64,000 nt of DNA, taken from positions 62,586-126,585 of the IMG/VR virus record IMGVR_UViG_3300033146_005596; one strand, 5' to 3'. The stretch is from a virus. A program made the position numbers and the translations under genes. Below the pieces are notes generated by a model. That model did not search any database. It was not told the origin of the DNA and worked only from the letters and a program-made list of their open reading frames with translations. Below, in pieces: positions 16,593 through 63,556 of this stretch. The number at the start of each line of letters is the position of its first letter. Position 1 is the first letter of the stretch.

Positions 16593-17675
16593 TCATTTAT
16601 TATCTTTTTCTTTTTTATTAAACCAAATCTCATAGCTTCTACTTTTAATCTTAGCTGATATATCTGGAGAGCTATACCCCCTTATTACAATACCTTCTCG
16701 CTTTACTTTACTATTCAATAAAGAAGTACCTTCAGAATACTCCAGTAGCTCCTTGACTGAGTTTCCAAGCTTGGAAAGGCTAGTACACTCTTTTAATATT
16801 GGTACATAAGATAATCCTGTTTCTAAAAAAAAGCTGGTCATTTTCTCAAAGCCCAAATCCTTTTCTGTATCTAAGTTCCTAACATTATACACAAAAAAAG
16901 CTAATATATCAAGATTATAAATATTTTTCTGAATACCAGGCCCAACAATCTCACCTTGGACCGCAATATTAAAACCGTGCTTTTTTTTATATTTTTTTAA
17001 CACCTTGTTTAGTTGGTACTGTTCAGCTACTCGGTACCAGTTATTACTCTTGTCTAACCTCCGTGTATTATGGCTAAAAACTTTAAACTTCTTACCTTCT
17101 AAGGAGTAAGCGGCCGCTTGACCTTCCAACTTTTCAGTAACAGAAAAAAGTATATTTTCCTTTTTGAGTCTATCATAACAAACCTGAATATTAGTCTCGC
17201 CGCTTTTTTTAATATTAGCTGGATAGGCAAAATCAATAGGGCCTATGAGTTTTATTCTCAATTTCTGGAAAAAGTTTAATTTAGTAGTGTCCGTTTGTGC
17301 AGTCTTTTGCTCATATCTTTTAATTTCTAAAATATCAGCAACTTTTAAGCCTTCAACTCTATTCTTAGCAAGAAGAGTTTTAGGTAAAATGTCTAAGCTG
17401 AATACAATTCCTTGAGAAAATAATCCTCGCATTTTCATATTCCGAATCCTAAAACCTTTTACTCGACTGTTATAGCACCTCGACCTTAAGAACTCAAACT
17501 TAGGCTTTTCTGGTAATACTGTATCATATTCAATATAAACACACAGGTCCCCAGCTTTGAAATCATCTTTTTTTACAATGACATCCCAGCCAAGAACATG
17601 TGCTAATTCGATATTATCACAGCCTTTAATTGGCTCTATACTTTTAATCTTTTGAATGCTTGCTAAATCTCGCAT
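16593..17675 (-). CDS. ATP-dependent RNA ligase, DRB0094 family
   Basis: N-terminal LASIQKI...YIEYDTVLP...RGLFSQG domain, then TEKLEG, QGEIVGPGIQKN and REGIV ligase motifs. Confidence 0.9.
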   Translation of the reverse strand: MRDLASIQKIKSIEPIKGCDNIELAHVLGWDVIVKKDDFKAGDLCVYIEYDTVLPEKPKFEFLRSRCYNSRVKGFRIRNMKMRGLFSQGIVFSLDILPKTLLAKNRVEGLKVADILEIKRYEQKTAQTDTTKLNFFQKLRIKLIGPIDFAYPANIKKSGETNIQVCYDRLKKENILFSVTEKLEGQAAAYSLEGKKFKVFSHNTRRLDKSNNWYRVAEQYQLNKVLKKYKKKHGFNIAVQGEIVGPGIQKNIYNLDILAFFVYNVRNLDTEKDLGFEKMTSFFLETGLSYVPILKECTSLSKLGNSVKELLEYSEGTSLLNSKVKREGIVIRGYSSPDISAKIKSRSYEIWFNKKEKDNK

Positions 17676-17702
17676 GTTTACTTCTCCCCTTGTATATAAT
17701 AC

Positions 17703-17960
17703 TTATTCTTCATTAATAAGTATACTATCCCATCTTTCAGAAGTTCGATACCACTTAGCATATTTATCTAAGGCTTTTCCAGTTCTTGCATCAAACTTAG
17801 GCCCAAAATCAAATGCTCCAAAGATTAAGCAATCTTGCGGGCAATCATCAAACACTTCTTGGCTATCCACTGCAGAACCTTCTCCAGCATTTTGTCTATA
17901 CTCTTGTAGTAGTTCTTGGTCTGCTAAAAACGCTACAAACTCTTCTCTTGTCTTTTCCAT
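17703..17960 (-). CDS. Hypothetical protein
   Basis: Middle promoter motif and AAGGAG SD. Confidence 0.6.
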   Translation of the reverse strand: MEKTREEFVAFLADQELLQEYRQNAGEGSAVDSQEVFDDCPQDCLIFGAFDFGPKFDARTGKALDKYAKWYRTSERWDSILINEE

Positions 17961-18025
17961 ATTTTATTATCTCCTTATATTATTATAATAAGGTGAAAGT
18001 AGACCTTTCTTACAAAAATAAATAA

Positions 18026-18058
18026 AAAAAACAGTCTTTTTAATTAAAGACTGTTTTT
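18026..18058. terminator. Bidirectional terminator
   Basis: AAAAACAGTCTTT / AAAGACTGTTTTT inverted repeat. Confidence 0.7.
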
Positions 18059-18102
18059 GGTAATTGGTACCAACAATTTTAATCTTACTATGAAAAAGAG
18101 CT

Positions 18103-18240
18103 CTAGTCCTTGCCACAGTAGACATATTTACTTGTCAGCTTTATACAAAGCTCACAGTTGACACAATTTATTTTCTTTTCCAATGGGCACTCCTTCGGTG
18201 CTTGATTCTTAAAAACTCTTAAGTGCTTATCTGCCTTCAT
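18103..18240 (-). CDS. 45-aa Cys-rich peptide (not in the ORF track)
   Basis: MKADKHLRVFKNQAPKECPLEKKINCVNCELCIKLTSKYVYCGKD. ATGA overlap with the upstream gene and a GGAGG SD. Confidence 0.55.
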   Translation of the reverse strand: MKADKHLRVFKNQAPKECPLEKKINCVNCELCIKLTSKYVYCGKD

Positions 18241-18464
18241 TTACCTCCCCTTCCTCTTCTTATAATTGAAATAATCATTAAGGTAACTCCTATTATAAGC
18301 ATTAAACTAGAATAGATAGCAAAAACTAATAATGGGAAGATGCTTATAATCCACCAACTTACAAAAATTAAGCCAAATAGCTTAAGTCCTATAAGAGTAA
18401 ACCACGCTCCATAAAATACCAGGCCTTCTAAATTTGTGTTTAACCATTTAATAAACTTTTTCAT
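18237..18464 (-). CDS. Small membrane protein
   Basis: Two hydrophobic segments with LKLFGLI..SWW.I..P. Confidence 0.6.
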   Translation of the reverse strand: MKKFIKWLNTNLEGLVFYGAWFTLIGLKLFGLIFVSWWIISIFPLLVFAIYSSLMLIIGVTLMIISIIRRGRGGK

Positions 18465-18469
18465 AAACT

Positions 18470-19600
18470 CTACCCCTTTATATTATAAACAGATTTCCAG
18501 ATTTCAATATCTGATATATTACCAGATAGTTCTTTAATCACAATATCAGCGTCTTTGTAAGCCCTAGGACTTTCATCTAGCCTCTTCTCATCTATACAAG
18601 AGCTCCAAATGTCTTTAGTATCCTCCTTAAACTCTTCCATTGCTAGTGTCTTTTTAGCTTGTGTTCTTGAGAAATTACGGCCAAGCCCATGAGGAGCTGA
18701 ACTGTTCCAATCAGTTTTTCCTCTTCCATACCCAACCAAAACACCTAAACCCATATTTAAAGGTATAATAACCTTTTCTAGCTTATGAGCAGATATAGCC
18801 CCCTTCCTAAGTATATTATCCTCAAAATCAATATAATTATGAACTGATGAAAAAGTCTGCATTCCATTCCTATTAAAAAACTCAAATATAATAGTAGAAT
18901 AAATCAAGGACCGACTAGTCTCTGCATACTCTTGAGCTATTTTCATGTGGTCAAAATATTTCTTAGCAGCTTTTCCATCTAAGTACTCTAAGCCTTTTTC
19001 TGCGTCTTTACAAGTATCCTCTGCTATTTTCTGGTGATAATCACAAATGTCTTTTCCAAACTTTCTAGAGCCAGTATGAACCACTAGGTAATGCTCATTG
19101 TTTTTATCTTTAACAATTTCAATAAAGTGATTACCACCTCCCAGGGTACCAATAGAGTTCTTGTACCTTTTTATGGAGTCTTCTTGACCTATTTCTTTAG
19201 CTACTTTTTCTATTTTCTTTAACAGACCCACTAAATTATTTCTTTCAAGAACTTTATCCAGATTTTGATGTATGTTAAATCCAACTGGAGTCCTTTCTCT
19301 TATAAACTTGTCAAGCCTTTCAAAAGTTGTTGCATCCAAGTTGTTCAAACCATCAATAGACGTACAAGAAACGCCACAGCCAATGTCTACACCAATTAAA
19401 TTTGGTATTACTTTTGAGCCCAACTCCATTGTTAACCCAATAGGACCAGCAGCTCCAAAGTGGTTATCTGGCATTATTCTAACTTTCTTACCTTTTGAAA
19501 CAGGAGAAACCATAATAGATTTAACTTGTTCTGCTACGTTATCAGGTACTTCATTACAAAATATTTTAGCGGTACCGAATTTTCCTTTTATTTCTTCCAT
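18470..19600 (-). CDS. rtcB: RtcB RNA-splicing/repair ligase
   Basis: MPDNH, GVDIGCG, GTLGGGNHFIE, HTGSR, HNY, SAPHG.GR and DESP.AYK motifs. Confidence 0.95.
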   Translation of the reverse strand: MEEIKGKFGTAKIFCNEVPDNVAEQVKSIMVSPVSKGKKVRIMPDNHFGAAGPIGLTMELGSKVIPNLIGVDIGCGVSCTSIDGLNNLDATTFERLDKFIRERTPVGFNIHQNLDKVLERNNLVGLLKKIEKVAKEIGQEDSIKRYKNSIGTLGGGNHFIEIVKDKNNEHYLVVHTGSRKFGKDICDYHQKIAEDTCKDAEKGLEYLDGKAAKKYFDHMKIAQEYAETSRSLIYSTIIFEFFNRNGMQTFSSVHNYIDFEDNILRKGAISAHKLEKVIIPLNMGLGVLVGYGRGKTDWNSSAPHGLGRNFSRTQAKKTLAMEEFKEDTKDIWSSCIDEKRLDESPRAYKDADIVIKELSGNISDIEIWKSVYNIKG

Positions 19601-19644
19601 ACTTTAACTCCTATTTTTAGTATTCTTTTTATCTGGTCTAATTG

Positions 19645-19749
19645 TGGACCTGTCGGGATTTGCACCCGAGTCTTATAACAACTTGGCTTTTCTTTCTAGT
19701 GCAGTTATTTCACCTCAGGCATTGTTACAATCGATACTAGTTCAGGCCC
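19645..19749 (-). ncRNA. ssrA: Minimal tmRNA-like RNA (105 nt) with putative tag (A)ALERKAKLL
   Basis: Acceptor stem GGGCCUG/CAGGUCC with G3.U70 and A73. Stemless D-loop ending UCGA. 9-bp P2. GAC linker. T-arm UCGGG-UGCAAAU-CCCGA. AAAUAACU-GCA resume context. Confidence 0.8.
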
Positions 19750-19757
19750 TATTCTCT

Positions 19758-20477
19758 TTATTCTAAATCAAAGAACTCATTCCATAAACAAATGGACTTC
19801 TTATCCTTTGAAATATAATCTTCGTGAAAATGGCCAAAAAGCCATTTATCAAACTTAACTTTCCCAGCAATCATACCAAAATATTCTCTGATACAACGCT
19901 CATCAGAATCAGTTTTATAATTAAATAACCCTTCTCTGTTCATCTCCTCAAACAAACTACTAGAACAAGTATGTGTTACTATAACATCAACTTTGTTTCT
20001 TCGCTTTTTAAGAGCAGCTAAGCCTTTACTAAATTCTCGGACAGTTGGAATCTCTTCCTTCCACCAAGAAACATAAGGAATTCTATTACCTTTATCAAAT
20101 GAATTAGCACCACCAAATGTAAATATTTTCTTCCTTTCTATCGTATATGTCTCACCTCTTAACAGATGATAAACATTAGTATCAACAACGCCAACAGTCC
20201 CTTTATACTTCTTTTCTCTGGGTAATTTATTTAATAGCTCAAAGTTTTCATGATTTCCATCTACAAAACAAATAACTCCATAAAACTCGGCATACTGTCT
20301 GAACTCTCTTTCTATTTTTTCTTTAGCTGCTTCAATATCTGCATCCCAGACAAAGCCAAAATCTCCAGCTACTATAACAATATCTTCTTTTTTTAGACCT
20401 TTAAACTTATCCAAGTCTGATTTACTGATACAGCCATGGGTATCTCCAATAATTCTAATCATTTTCTGTACCTCCAT
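19758..20477 (-). CDS. Calcineurin-like metallophosphoesterase
   Basis: GDTHG, AGDFG, DGNHE, VTH and GHFH motifs. Confidence 0.92.
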   Translation of the reverse strand: MEVQKMIRIIGDTHGCISKSDLDKFKGLKKEDIVIVAGDFGFVWDADIEAAKEKIEREFRQYAEFYGVICFVDGNHENFELLNKLPREKKYKGTVGVVDTNVYHLLRGETYTIERKKIFTFGGANSFDKGNRIPYVSWWKEEIPTVREFSKGLAALKKRRNKVDVIVTHTCSSSLFEEMNREGLFNYKTDSDERCIREYFGMIAGKVKFDKWLFGHFHEDYISKDKKSICLWNEFFDLE

Positions 20478-20543
20478 ATACTATTATAATAAGCAACTTT
20501 ATGGTATTTCTTATAAAATATTTTAAAAAATTACCATAAAAAT

Positions 20544-20566
20544 AGTCGGTACTTAGGTACCGACTT
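20544..20566. terminator. Terminator hairpin downstream of the tRNA cluster
   Basis: AGTCGGTAC-TTAG-GTACCGACT. Confidence 0.65.
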
Positions 20567-20940
20567 TATTAAATACAAACTTTATTTAATAACTTATTTT
20601 TAAATGAGACCAGAATTAATTCTGGATTTGCACCGGAGAAATCTCCGGATTTGTCATTGCTAGAACTAATACATAGGCCAGGTTTGGAAATGAGCCTCTT
20701 TTGAGACTGCCTAAATAAAAGCAATAACTCCTGTTAAAAATTATTTTTAAAAAGTCTCTTTCTGCAATAGCAGGACTTGTAGAAAGTGTATTTGCTATCA
20801 CTTTCTTAACTCATTAAAAATCCAATGATTTTTGTCCGACGCATTTTTTTTGCTCTATTTCCTCTTTCACAGCCTTCATACTTTATCTCCTTTTTATTTT
20901 GTAAATCATCTATCTACTATATTGCAGACCTTTCTTTAGA

Positions 20941-21014
20941 TGCTACTTATCTAGAATTGCACTAGACTTTACTAGGTTTATTCCTAGCAGCTTTACTTCA
21001 TAAGCGAAAGTAGC
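20941..21014 (-). tRNA. tRNA-like gene with a non-canonical anticodon loop
   Basis: Acceptor GCUACUU/AAGUAGC, D-stem GCUU/AAGC and T-arm UCUAG-UGCAAUU-CUAGA are intact. Anticodon arm CUAGG-AAUAAA-CCUAG has a 6-nt loop. Confidence 0.6.
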
Positions 21015-21175
21015 TCAAAGGGGTTTTATTTAAGTGAGTACCTAACTCTCACTCTCCGGTACAACGCTTAGCTGGCAACTATAGCATAGGAGTCTTGGTA
21101 CCAACTAGGCAGCTCATACAGGAGTTTTCAAGAAGTTTTTGATAGCTTGTTCAACAATCAATTATACTTCATTTC

Positions 21176-21247
21176 TAGCAGTGGCTGGAATTGCACCAAC
21201 ATGCACTAGGTTATGAGCCTAGCCGCTTTCTAATCGCTCACACTGCG
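21176..21247 (-). tRNA. tRNA-Met(CAT), initiator-like
   Basis: Anticodon arm CUAGG-CUCAUAA-CCUAG. C1:U72 mismatch. Weak D-arm. CCA not encoded. Confidence 0.7.
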
Positions 21248-21248
21248 A

Positions 21249-21321
21249 CGGAAAATCTTGGGTTCGAACCAAGGACCTACGACTTTACAGACCGTTGCTC
21301 TACCAACTGAGCTAATTTTCC
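21249..21321 (-). tRNA. tRNA with GTA (Tyr) anticodon, short variable loop and G73
   Basis: GGAAAAU/AUUUUCC, GCUC/GAGC, ACGGU-CUGUAAA-GUCGU, CUUGG-UUCGAAC-CCAAG. Confidence 0.75.
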
Positions 21322-21325
21322 AGGA

Positions 21326-21396
21326 CGGAAAATCTTGGGTTCGAACCAAGGACCTACGAGGTAACAGCGTTGCTCTACCAACTGAGCTAATTTTCC
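21326..21396 (-). tRNA. Tandem copy of the previous tRNA with an aberrant (GTT/Asn-like) anticodon arm
   Basis: Identical body. Anticodon arm ACG-CUGUUACCU-CGU is 15 nt instead of 17. Confidence 0.65.
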
Positions 21397-21422
21397 AGTA
21401 ATTTGCATTCTAAATGCTAATT

Positions 21423-21495
21423 TAGTTCCTAAGAGATTCGAACTCTTGTTATCAGATTGAAGGCCTGATGTCCTAACCAATTAGACGAAGGAACC
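21423..21495 (-). tRNA. tRNA-Glu(TTC)
   Basis: Glu-type D-arm and short variable loop. Anticodon arm UCAGG-CCUUCAA-UCUGA has C33 instead of U33. Confidence 0.8.
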
Positions 21496-21579
21496 AAGTC
21501 ATGAGCCTTGTTACTAACTCATACTTATAATAGCTAACAAACTTGCTCGCTCTGAATACTTCAGCCAGCTAAAGTTAAG

Positions 21580-21650
21580 TAAGACGACTCAGATTCGAAC
21601 TGAGGAACTCCTGTTCCCAAATGGACCACTTGTGCAACCCAACCCGTCTT
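21580..21650 (-). pseudogene. Degenerate tRNA (Pro TGG-like)
   Basis: Acceptor AAGACGG/UCGUCUU and T-arm CUCAG-UUCGAAU-CUGAG are intact. UUUGGGA loop is present but the D and anticodon stems are unpaired. Confidence 0.55.
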
Positions 21651-21696
21651 ATGCTATTTAATTAGTGCTTTGAGGTTTTATACTCAAAACTAATTA

Positions 21697-21767
21697 TAGG
21701 GCCTAGAAAATTTGAATTCCTACTATCTCCGTCAAAGGGAGATGTGCTACCATTACACTAAAGCCCT
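21697..21767 (-). tRNA. tRNA-Gln(TTG)
   Basis: AGGGCUU/AGGCCCU, GUGU/GCAC, UCUCC-CUUUGAC-GGAGA. AU-rich T-stem. Confidence 0.8.
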
Positions 21768-21774
21768 GCATCAA

Positions 21775-22035
21775 CTATCTACAAGTTGCGTTGAAAATTA
21801 GACTAACAACTACAATAATTGTAAAAATAAAAACAATGGTATATACCCCAACAAAAGCTAGAGTACCAAAAGCTAGCGGACCGCACTCTACAAAGTCATT
21901 TACTCTTTCAAGTATAAGTCCTATGATTCCCCCAATAATCCCTAAGATTACTGGTAGGTAACAAACAACAAATACTCCAATAGCCTTTCCTACCTTTTTA
22001 TTATGCACACTATCATAACTCTTAGTTGCTACCAT
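21775..22035 (-). CDS. Two-TM membrane protein
   Basis: Hydrophobic helices. Early promoter motif and AGGAGG SD. Confidence 0.6.
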   Translation of the reverse strand: MVATKSYDSVHNKKVGKAIGVFVVCYLPVILGIIGGIIGLILERVNDFVECGPLAFGTLAFVGVYTIVFIFTIIVVVSLIFNATCR

Positions 22036-62395: not shown

Positions 62396-63556
62396 ATGCT
62401 ATTATCAGAAACAGGAAGCAAAGTCTTCTATAAAAAATTTTATGAATGGATTCAGCTACAAGACCTCAGGCCAGAAATGGGTATATCTGATTTTACTAAA
62501 AAGTTTAAAGATGAAAGGACTTTAGAGTTTGGCCCAGAGAAAAACTTAGCTCGGCTTGAAGATATGGAACAAAATGGTAATGATATTACTTTTATATGGA
62601 CAACTCCAGTAGGAAGCCGTGACCCAAAAAAAGTTAATGATAACCACGAGATTGTTGATAATCCCGAACGTGAGTATATCCTAAAAATAAAGTTTATAGA
62701 CTTTGTACAAAAAACGAATAACTTAAGAATTGAGGATTTGGAAGACTTTCATAGTATAGCTATGTCCTGTAATATTCAGATAGATGATAATGACCCGAGC
62801 TTTCAATTTCAAGGTATGAATTATAACATAAGCCAGTTAGATGGCTCATTGAATCCCACAAATATACCACCTAAAGATTGGAGAAGATTCCATAATAATG
62901 ACAACTTCTTATCTAAGTTTATGCAGGGCTTAATAGATAGTATTGAATTTTTCTACAAGCCTATGATGCTGATGTTCAATGATTATAACTCTTATGCTTC
63001 AAGTATAGCTGCAGGAGAAGAGATAAACATAAATGATGATGTTTATGATAACCCTTACAATATTGATGGATTTCCAGGTGAGGTTGAGTTTACCCCTGAA
63101 TATAATACTGATGCAGAAGAAAAAGATATAAATGAAGACCCAGAAGATGATAGGTTTAATATTGACTGGGACAGCTTAGATATAGATGATTCAGATTTTG
63201 AGGTTACTATAGAAGATGATGACAGAGGTTGGGTACTTGATATTAACAACCCAGAATCGGAAGAGATTGAATATTCAGATTTTTCAAGTGATACTGAAGA
63301 TTTGGAGCCAGTAATTGAGCCATTGTTAAAGGATGATGAAAGTTCTGATGATGTAGAAGATAAAGCAGAAAAAGAAGACATGGAATTTGATTTTGATGAT
63401 TTTTATGATGAGTTTGATACAGGCCTTTATGCTAAGGACGAAGAAGTAGACTATGTGGACAAGACGGATGACATTGAAAATATTACTGATGATAGTATTG
63501 TTTTGGATGATGATGCCGAATTTGATATTGATGATATATTCAACGCGTTTAGCTAG
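62396..63556 (+). CDS. Late protein with a very acidic C-terminal half
   Basis: ACTAATTA-TAT-ATG start. D.NDPSFQFQG..Y...Q.D globular N-domain. Confidence 0.6.
   Translation: MLLSETGSKVFYKKFYEWIQLQDLRPEMGISDFTKKFKDERTLEFGPEKNLARLEDMEQNGNDITFIWTTPVGSRDPKKVNDNHEIVDNPEREYILKIKFIDFVQKTNNLRIEDLEDFHSIAMSCNIQIDDNDPSFQFQGMNYNISQLDGSLNPTNIPPKDWRRFHNNDNFLSKFMQGLIDSIEFFYKPMMLMFNDYNSYASSIAAGEEININDDVYDNPYNIDGFPGEVEFTPEYNTDAEEKDINEDPEDDRFNIDWDSLDIDDSDFEVTIEDDDRGWVLDINNPESEEIEYSDFSSDTEDLEPVIEPLLKDDESSDDVEDKAEKEDMEFDFDDFYDEFDTGLYAKDEEVDYVDKTDDIENITDDSIVLDDDAEFDIDDIFNAFS

Follow-up and report, generated by a model that had tools for sequence, protein, structure and literature searches.

Transfer-messenger RNA (tmRNA) is the main bacterial rescue system for stalled ribosomes. 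Several reduced or rearranged forms of it have been described: 'Mycobacterium phage DS6A (TLD only)' is tabulated as a molecule with little beyond the tRNA-like domain (TLD) (Hudson, Lau and Williams 2014, PMC4131195), and a molecule similar to that of DS6A, whether chargeable with alanine or not, is presented as a strong tmRNA inhibitor, perhaps via titration of SmpB (PMC4131195, PMC11915505; both cite Mao et al. 2009 for this statement). tmRNAs devoid of a coding sequence (CDS) are given for jakobid mitochondria and, at ~65 bp, for the plastids of Mallomonadaceae (PMC11915505, citing Jacob et al. 2004), and two-piece tmRNAs are described as being encoded by aquatic phages, namely the Methylophilales phage Melnitz and pelagimyophages (PMC9004378). 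Here, a 105-nt candidate mini-tmRNA was analysed in positions 62,586 to 126,585 of the IMG/VR virus record IMGVR_UViG_3300033146_005596. This 64,000-nt stretch is 'the window', to which the coordinates of the element and its neighbours refer, and is part of a 126.6-kb record with a CheckV completeness of 43%. The element is, judged by its sequence, derived from tmRNA, and the favoured reading, held at a probability of about 0.6, is a phage mini-tmRNA that would engage host SmpB, and perhaps stalled ribosomes, and would block or divert host trans-translation.

The first-pass annotation of the stretch had listed an acceptor stem with G3:U70, A73, a stemless D-loop, helix P2, a loop with a frame opening at GCA, a GAC linker and a T arm, all of which were confirmed. 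The parts, with window coordinates and strand, are as follows:

19645..19749, minus strand: the whole mini-tmRNA gene, 105 nt, with G1 at 19749 and the discriminator A73 at 19645
19743..19749, minus strand: 5′ strand of the acceptor stem, GGGCCUG, with G3 paired with U70 (pair probability ~1.0)
19731..19742, minus strand: stemless D-loop AACUAGUAUCGA, 12 nt, ending in UCGA and matching the family motif NNCUAGNNUCGA
19722..19730, minus strand: 5′ strand of helix P2, UUGUAACAA (pair probabilities 0.54–0.73)
19682..19721, minus strand: 40-nt loop, standing in place of pseudoknot 1, the tag region, helix 5 and the other pseudoknots
19700..19710, minus strand: core restart (resume) motif AAAUAACU plus GCA, the GCA being at 19702-19700
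19673..19702, minus strand: candidate short open frame ALERKAKLL-stop (GCA CUA GAA AGA AAA GCC AAG UUG UUA UAA)
19673..19681, minus strand: 3′ strand of helix P2, UUGUUAUAA (minimum-free-energy fold, pair probabilities and alignment)
19670..19672, minus strand: GAC linker between P2 and the T arm (from the sequence)
19653..19669, minus strand: T arm UCGGG-UGCAAAU-CCCGA, its T-loop identical to that of one phage tmRNA subgroup
19646..19652, minus strand: 3′ strand of the acceptor stem, CAGGUCC (fold and alignment)

All three helices are held by the minimum-free-energy structure computed with ViennaRNA, with pair probabilities of 0.63–0.75 for the T stem beside the values listed for the acceptor stem and P2. 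The P2 helix comprises 9 bp including one G-U, and its 3′ strand is at the same time the last nine bases of the ALERKAKLL frame. The mean unpaired probability is 0.60 for the 40-nt loop and 0.64 for the region of the restart motif. The folding energy is unremarkable (z = −1.8, with 10 of 200 shuffled sequences as stable or better). Between the two P2 strands there are 40 nt, and the pseudoknots of a standard tmRNA (pseudoknot 1 upstream and pseudoknots 2–4 downstream of the tag) are absent. The acceptor stem is separated from the next helix by 12 nt, versus 19 nt in a decoding tRNA, and a decoding tRNA, tRNA-Ala or other, was called at the element neither by ARAGORN (with or without introns) nor by the Rfam model RF00005. 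An intron-bearing or degenerate tRNA was considered as a candidate and rejected: with introns of 10–80 nt or with lowered thresholds, ARAGORN returned nothing on the strand of the element, and its sole low-threshold call at the site lies on the opposite strand and is implausible. As had been noted earlier, CCA is not encoded, A73 being followed by CAA (that is, ACAA in place of ACCA). This is normal for the genome, since CCA is encoded in none of the tRNA genes of the phage, as checked in their 3′ trailers. The sequence, the fold and the family kinship described below together sustain the earlier view of a pseudoknot-free, tmRNA-derived RNA whose tRNA-like domain bears the alanine identity marks.

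The main evidence for derivation from tmRNA, rather than the folding energy, is that the ends of the element are common to a family of phage tmRNAs. Its 3′ 28 nt fit a pattern (in which two T-stem pairs were left free) that occurs in 38 IMG/VR contigs with two-piece tmRNA genes, and its 5′ 19 nt fit the motif GGGCCTGNNCTAGNNTCGA, which occurs in at least 119 IMG/VR stretches. In the 38-contig set, GGGCCUG plus the D-loop NNCUAGNNUCGA is located 57–200 nt downstream of the 3′ pattern; because the 5′ strand sits downstream, these genes are circularly permuted, two-piece tmRNAs. The same placement ruled out an attP-type 3′ fragment of a host tmRNA, a candidate raised by the lack of an upstream 5′ strand in the 38 contigs. 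Unlike such a fragment, the element itself contains both strands.

The fetched loci contain the 5′ motif at 127 places: permuted genes account for 109 of these and standard full-length genes (379–408 nt) for 3, and the remaining 15 lack a partner, several of this last group falling within GC-rich coding sequence. A tmRNA was called by ARAGORN in 102 of 142 family loci, nearly all with canonical tags (for example, ANDSQFALAA and ANDSKFALAA), and the Rfam tmRNA cut-offs were exceeded by all seven representative loci: (i) L021, L027, L066 and L149 reached 93–132 bits on tmRNA_permuted (RF04321) and also matched alpha- or beta-type models, with L021 and L027, two of the 38 contigs with the UGCAAAU T-loop pattern, scoring as permuted and beta-type tmRNA; (ii) L072, L074 and L140 reached 58–67 bits on RF00023. 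The element is ~270 nt shorter than a full-length standard tmRNA. No host tmRNA with the 3′ end of the element was found among the GTDB representative genomes (0 matches).

Two further features of these loci were recorded. In the two-piece genes (L021–L162, IMG/VR), the segment from CCA to the 5′ strand spans 29–219 nt, and perhaps 389 nt in L110; an inverted repeat flanks this segment in several genes, and a few of the contigs are 286–364 kb long. Separately, a 73-nt tRNA-like gene with the same unusual T-loop as the element, UGCAAAU, is present at L019:6800-6872 (+) and L020:5016-5088 (+), where it adjoins a tRNA-Lys of identical acceptor stem and receives no ARAGORN call.

The DS6A gene was located at JN698994.1 28478-28560, with an RF00023 match of 43.2 bits that lies below the curated cut-off of 47 bits and spans the whole model; the mini-tmRNA is unannotated in that record. 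The gene and the element are alike in many respects. Both are phage-borne and in standard order, with a 7-bp acceptor stem bearing G3:U70, A73 and no CCA; both have a stemless D-loop ending in UCGA(C), a P2 that closes a short loop, a linker and a T arm; and both give a sub-cut-off RF00023 match across the whole model (43.2 bits and, for the element, 36.7 bits). A pattern of the DS6A layout with the GGGGCUG acceptor was found in 18 further IMG/VR contigs, representing 13 distinct genes of 67–80 nt. None of these genes is called by ARAGORN, RF00023 gives 57–75 bits in the four examined, and they share the loop motif UAAAGCC-hairpin-GGAAC. In these contigs (L167–L184), several of the genes are situated inside phage tRNA clusters and five are followed by an encoded CCA; examples are L168:13093-13170(-), L173:800-876(-) and L182:9371-9450(-).

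The 13 distinct mini genes, the DS6A gene and the element were aligned (15 sequences). In this alignment 96.1% of the cells pair, and seven of the seven P2 pairs and four of the five T-stem pairs change on both sides, values equalled in none of 500 shuffles and in no slid register. G3:U70 is invariant in all 15 sequences, as are the UCGA of the D-loop and the middle A of the linker, whose flanking G is nearly invariant. The element forms all 19 scored pairs of the covarying structure, and the first seven of its P2 pairs occupy the columns of the covarying P2 of the minis. The acceptor, the T-loop and a portion of the T stem were preset in the search pattern but P2 was left free, so the covariation in P2 is independent evidence of selection on the phage minis. 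The element therefore shows the layout of the TLD-only class throughout (acceptor, D-loop, P2, linker and T arm, their order and carriage by a phage). The claim that this architecture was undescribed had to be withdrawn, given the same layout in the DS6A TLD-only tmRNA and such genes in the 18 further phage contigs. The alternative raised in the same annotation, a decoy of SmpB or of alanyl-tRNA synthetase (AlaRS), would agree with the account of the DS6A-type molecule given in PMC4131195 and PMC11915505.

The element lies on the minus strand among genes for RNA repair, with the following neighbours:

19758..20477, minus strand: calcineurin-like metallophosphoesterase gene, the upstream neighbour (Pfam PF00149, E = 5.2e-12)
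18470..19600, minus strand: RtcB RNA ligase gene, the downstream neighbour (Pfam PF01139, E = 5.6e-56)
16593..17675, minus strand: second RNA ligase gene, PHA02142 OB fold plus RNA_ligase (PF21189, E = 3.3e-33; PF09414, E = 1.1e-19)
21176..21767, minus strand: tRNA gene cluster (ARAGORN, Rfam; 3′ trailers)

The stop codon of the metallophosphoesterase gene is 8 nt before the element and the start codon of rtcB is 44 nt past it; the Rnl-type ligase, RtcB and the metallophosphoesterase form an RNA-repair island on one strand (16593-20477, minus), with the mini-tmRNA between the last two. Promoter-like sites are at chance level (14 versus 13.3 expected). One terminator-like site is upstream of the phosphoesterase gene and none is between the element and rtcB. 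ARAGORN found four tRNAs in the window, none at the element, and neither a second tmRNA, standard or permuted, nor a CCA-adding enzyme (PF01743) was found in the 126.6-kb record, which is 43% complete.

This setting bears on an explanation linked to RNA repair, in which the element would be a tRNA-like substrate, sensor or decoy of host nucleases that act on anticodons or tRNAs, to be resealed by RtcB, or a mere processing signal between the phosphoesterase and RtcB messages. Its location 8 nt past the phosphoesterase gene and 44 nt ahead of rtcB, with the second ligase and the tRNA cluster on the same strand, is in line with such a role; moreover, ssrA of E. coli bears mapped RtcB ligation sites and tmRNA has been named as an RtcB target (PMC9650030), and DS6A too encodes an RtcB-like ligase (gp76, JN698994.1 49300-50502; L164/L165). 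Yet a distance of 21 kb separates the mini-tmRNA of DS6A from rtcB, and tblastn detected no homologue of RtcB, the phosphoesterase or the ligase in the fetched flanks of either the 18 mini loci or the 142 family loci. Conversely, a TLD-like gene is present at none of 19 loci of RtcB relatives (ARAGORN plus our own scan) and at none of the 15 of these searched with Rfam, a set that omitted L005, L013, L018 and L020 as apparent duplicates of L004, L003, L007 and L019. The element furthermore offers no anticodon loop to an anticodon nuclease. On this balance a repair-linked role, or that of a mere processing signal, is considered most unlikely.

The RtcB of the phage shares 28–41% identity with its IMG/VR relatives, and its best non-self match among 5.8 billion proteins is at 49% identity; in the databases searched, the phage thus has no close kin. 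At one of the relatives' loci, ~2.3 kb upstream of a phage rtcB (L008:519-715, plus strand), two unusually long tRNA genes (91 nt and 96 nt) were observed; they are read by ARAGORN as Ile aat and Arg acg, score 33.5 and 38.8 bits with Rfam, carry extra sequence after the anticodon region and may be insert-bearing. Three sequences in the tRNA cluster of the window are likewise recorded: (i) 21323-21397 (minus strand), a near-copy of the adjacent tRNA-Tyr with a shortened, altered anticodon arm, which ARAGORN calls a tRNA-Stop (anticodon tta) and Rfam at gathering threshold does not list, and which may represent either a suppressor tRNA or a degenerated duplicate; (ii) 21580-21650 (minus strand), a 71-nt tRNA-like sequence picked up by an acceptor-plus-T-arm scan, with no ARAGORN or Rfam call; (iii) 21176-21247 (minus strand), a tRNA by Rfam alone (42 bits), with the anticodon loop CUCAUAA and the T-loop UGCAAUU.

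Under the favoured reading of a mini-tmRNA acting on host trans-translation, the element would most likely descend from a full-length tmRNA of the aquatic-phage family with which it has its ends in common; internal deletions would have spared the tRNA-like domain and P2 of this phage-borne tmRNA and removed all pseudoknots and the ancestral tag. It would be transcribed together with the flanking phosphoesterase and RtcB genes, excised from the transcript by RNase P and 3′ processing enzymes, and completed by the host CCA-adding enzyme, as the phage's own tRNAs would also require. The RNA could then be charged by AlaRS through G3:U70 and A73 and would bind host SmpB, perhaps with EF-Tu and stalled ribosomes, so that tag-and-degrade rescue would be blocked or diverted during infection. 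The Rfam class of the relatives suggests that this SmpB would be of the betaproteobacterial type. The core restart motif would be an ancestral relic; a less probable view is that it is a signal that still places the loop in the decoding site.

Several results weigh against this reading. On the 126.6-kb record RF00023 gives a single match, at window 19642-19749 and across model positions 1-374, and its 36.7 bits are below the cut-off. Sub-threshold matches to this model were also obtained in archaeal control genomes, which are without tmRNA, so the match is weak by itself. ARAGORN makes no call at the element, even at relaxed thresholds. Proposed earlier as a check, the combination of covariance model and ARAGORN thus came out divided, the lone RF00023 match falling at the element but under the cut-off and the ARAGORN call being absent. 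No SmpB gene (PF01668) was found in the 43%-complete record. The loop of the element is twice the DS6A-type length and is without the UAAAGCC-hairpin-GGAAC motif, a difference by which the element may work differently from the DS6A-type minis. A pure decoy role leaves unexplained why the core restart motif is intact, with its U at −5, an A at both −4 and −3, and GCA. Finally, pattern searches of IMG/VR, JGI metagenome contigs and GTDB representatives found no relative of the 105-nt form, so that selection on this particular RNA is presumptive.

The element is in standard gene order, and not in the two-piece order of acceptor piece, intervening segment and coding piece. At Rfam gathering thresholds the window yields tRNAs only, and at E up to 10 cmscan also leaves RF00023 unlisted, lists no mitochondrial tmRNA match to the element and gives the permuted-tmRNA model RF04321 14.9 bits, over the T arm and the 3′ strand only.

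The searches for relatives were made at several sizes. With the exact ends of the element, no further copy is present in IMG/VR, and the same ends at a total of ~82–112 nt or ~113–143 nt gave no hit there either; in the GTDB representative genomes the same ends were likewise not found, and the one match in JGI metagenome contigs is a chance one, in GC-rich coding sequence and without a T arm. No form of intermediate size with the canonical GGGGCUG acceptor (gap 51–81) was found, and blastn of 18400-21800 against phage records returned parts with tRNA or RtcB only, none of them extending over more than 5% of the query.

Such a singleton in all three collections is what a decaying, functionless remnant of a full-length phage tmRNA, a one-off deletion product, would look like, and the loss of the tag, the diverged flanks of the restart motif and the score below the Rfam cut-off point the same way. 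Decay would sit poorly, however, with three helices in which 21 of 21 base pairs are intact, with the retention of every column invariant in the 15-sequence alignment, with a deletion closed by a continuous 9-bp P2 and with tight, operon-like gene spacing; besides, selection maintains such minis in phages, as indicated by P2 covariation in 13 distinct sequences. That the helices are free of mismatches after a loss of ~270 nt, together with gene spacings of 8 nt and 44 nt, would argue for selection rather than decay, and the remnant is regarded as unlikely.

The restart region was compared with the contexts of the family, taken as the 12 nt before the first tag codon in 90 family genes. These are A-rich and end in U, A, A, A or C, and U or C ahead of GCA; the next codon is mostly AAC, with AA at its first two bases in 37 of 38 contexts. 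The element reads GGUGAAAUAACU GCA CUA, so that U(−5), A(−4) and A(−3), found in 34, 38 and 34 of the 38 contexts, respectively, are present, and the second codon departs from the family AA. An 11-nt family weight matrix (−8 to +3) gives it 13.9 bits, against a median of 11.5 and a maximum of 14.1 within the family, and the score of the element is reached by 3 of 253150 11-mers in the phage record, or ~3.6e-4 when corrected for 30 loop positions; the 11-nt window was picked after the match was seen, and wider windows are weaker (corrected values of 0.009 for 13 nt, 0.08 for 15 nt, and 0.04 to 0.66 with the second codon). The resume context claimed by the first-pass annotation is therefore only partly supported: the core 11-nt motif scores at the top of the family range, but with a post hoc window and a second codon outside family usage. 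The core motif probably does survive from an ancestral restart site. Gapped collinearity between the loop and the family coding pieces is not significant (62 of 200 shuffles reach the score); in another local alignment the 3′ half of the loop, even AAUAACUGCACUA, matches the start of the family acceptor piece at ~65% identity with gaps. The same loop bases may thus be homologous either to that start or to the restart context.

The short frame itself had been offered as evidence of a tag. It lost that value, since 1747 of the 2527 GCA sites in the record (69%) are open for at least nine codons, and a nine-codon frame carries no information where most sites are equally open. In addition to the CUA codon, ALERKAKLL lacks the LAA/MAA/IAA-type ending found in nearly all family tags called by ARAGORN. 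The frame is thus not counted as a tag, and the tag message proposed earlier is without support. With the restart codon at nt 48, versus nt 82–120 in the 90 family genes, no room is left for pseudoknot 1.

These results bear on the reading of the element as a working minimal trans-translation RNA, in which translation would restart on the loop GCA, proceed as ALERKAKLL through an unwinding P2 and stop at UAA, so that stalled proteins would gain a basic, degron-free tag and ribosomes would be rescued without proteolysis. In E. coli tmRNA, single strands can replace pseudoknots 2–4 and a hairpin can replace pseudoknot 1, which counts for such a molecule, as do the near-maximal score of the core motif, the three kept bases, the mostly unpaired motif region and an in-frame UAA directly ahead of the GAC linker. 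Set against these are the post hoc choice of the motif window, the uninformative frame, the off-family second codon, a peptide without the hydrophobic LAA-type ending, the missing space for pseudoknot 1 and the insignificant collinearity of the loop with the family. Moreover, with the UAA 3 nt from the T arm the RNA would draw its own tRNA-like domain into the mRNA channel, and no relatives were found that could show conservation of the frame. Tagging of this kind is accordingly judged quite unlikely. An elaborated version, in which a pseudoknot-free tagging tmRNA would add AALERKAKLL, its products being shielded from the tag-directed proteolysis of the host, as part of a kit with RtcB, the second ligase and the phosphoesterase that would counter RNA-cleaving defences of the host, is similarly improbable.

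The preferred mini-tmRNA reading has several implications. Mini-tmRNAs appear to have arisen more than once, the element belonging to the aquatic-phage GGGCCUG lineage, in which most genes are two-piece. Perhaps the element is an evolutionary intermediate between a full-length phage tmRNA and the TLD-only miniatures; a stage of this kind, still with the ancestral restart motif, would picture how miniatures form. It is also directly beside rtcB, whose product is reported to reseal broken tmRNA in E. coli (PMC9650030). If the restart motif were in use, the known minimum that a ribosome requires for a template switch would be lowered. Otherwise, the element would be a somewhat unusual member of a widespread, largely unannotated set of phage RNAs whose probable effect is to disturb ribosome rescue in the host.

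Compared with the known systems, the element shares with the CDS-less tmRNAs of jakobids and Mallomonadaceae, as characterized in PMC11915505, that it has little beyond the tRNA-like domain and no recognised tag, but those molecules are organellar and, in plastids, of ~65 nt. With standard one-piece tmRNA (RF00023; phage genes L072, L074 and L140) it shares the tRNA-like domain, P2, the gene order and, in its core, the restart motif, and with L072 also the UGCAAAU T-loop and the lack of an encoded CCA, whereas the three phage genes are 379–408 nt long, with pseudoknots, long canonical tags and scores of 58–67 bits. The permuted phage tmRNAs (Melnitz and pelagimyophages; RF04321, RF01849 and RF01850) have the same 5′ end, GGGCCUG followed by NNCUAGNNUCGA; one subgroup of them also has the GAC linker, the T-loop UGCAAAU and the 3′ strand CAGGUCCA, and some family members have the core restart context ..AUAACU GCA. 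They differ from the element in being circularly permuted and made as two RNAs, with pseudoknot 1, canonical tags such as ANDSQFALAA, an encoded CCA and 93–132 bits on RF04321 (versus 14.9 for the element). The TLD-only class, the nearest in layout, is typified by a size of 65–85 nt, a loop of ~4–20 nt and no restart signal, a range outside which the element falls: DS6A has an 83-nt match (80 nt to the discriminator), a 5-bp P2 and a 20-nt loop, versus 105 nt, 9 bp and 40 nt, respectively, in the element. The AAA(A/G)CC-hairpin motif of DS6A-type loops is absent from the element, whose loop has retained the core restart motif found in its parent family. Its acceptor and T-loop are those of a tmRNA lineage other than that of DS6A, and its GGGCCUG lineage is not that of the canonical minis either. 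The architecture of the element is therefore already known, and its unusual part is the larger loop with the core restart motif of the family.

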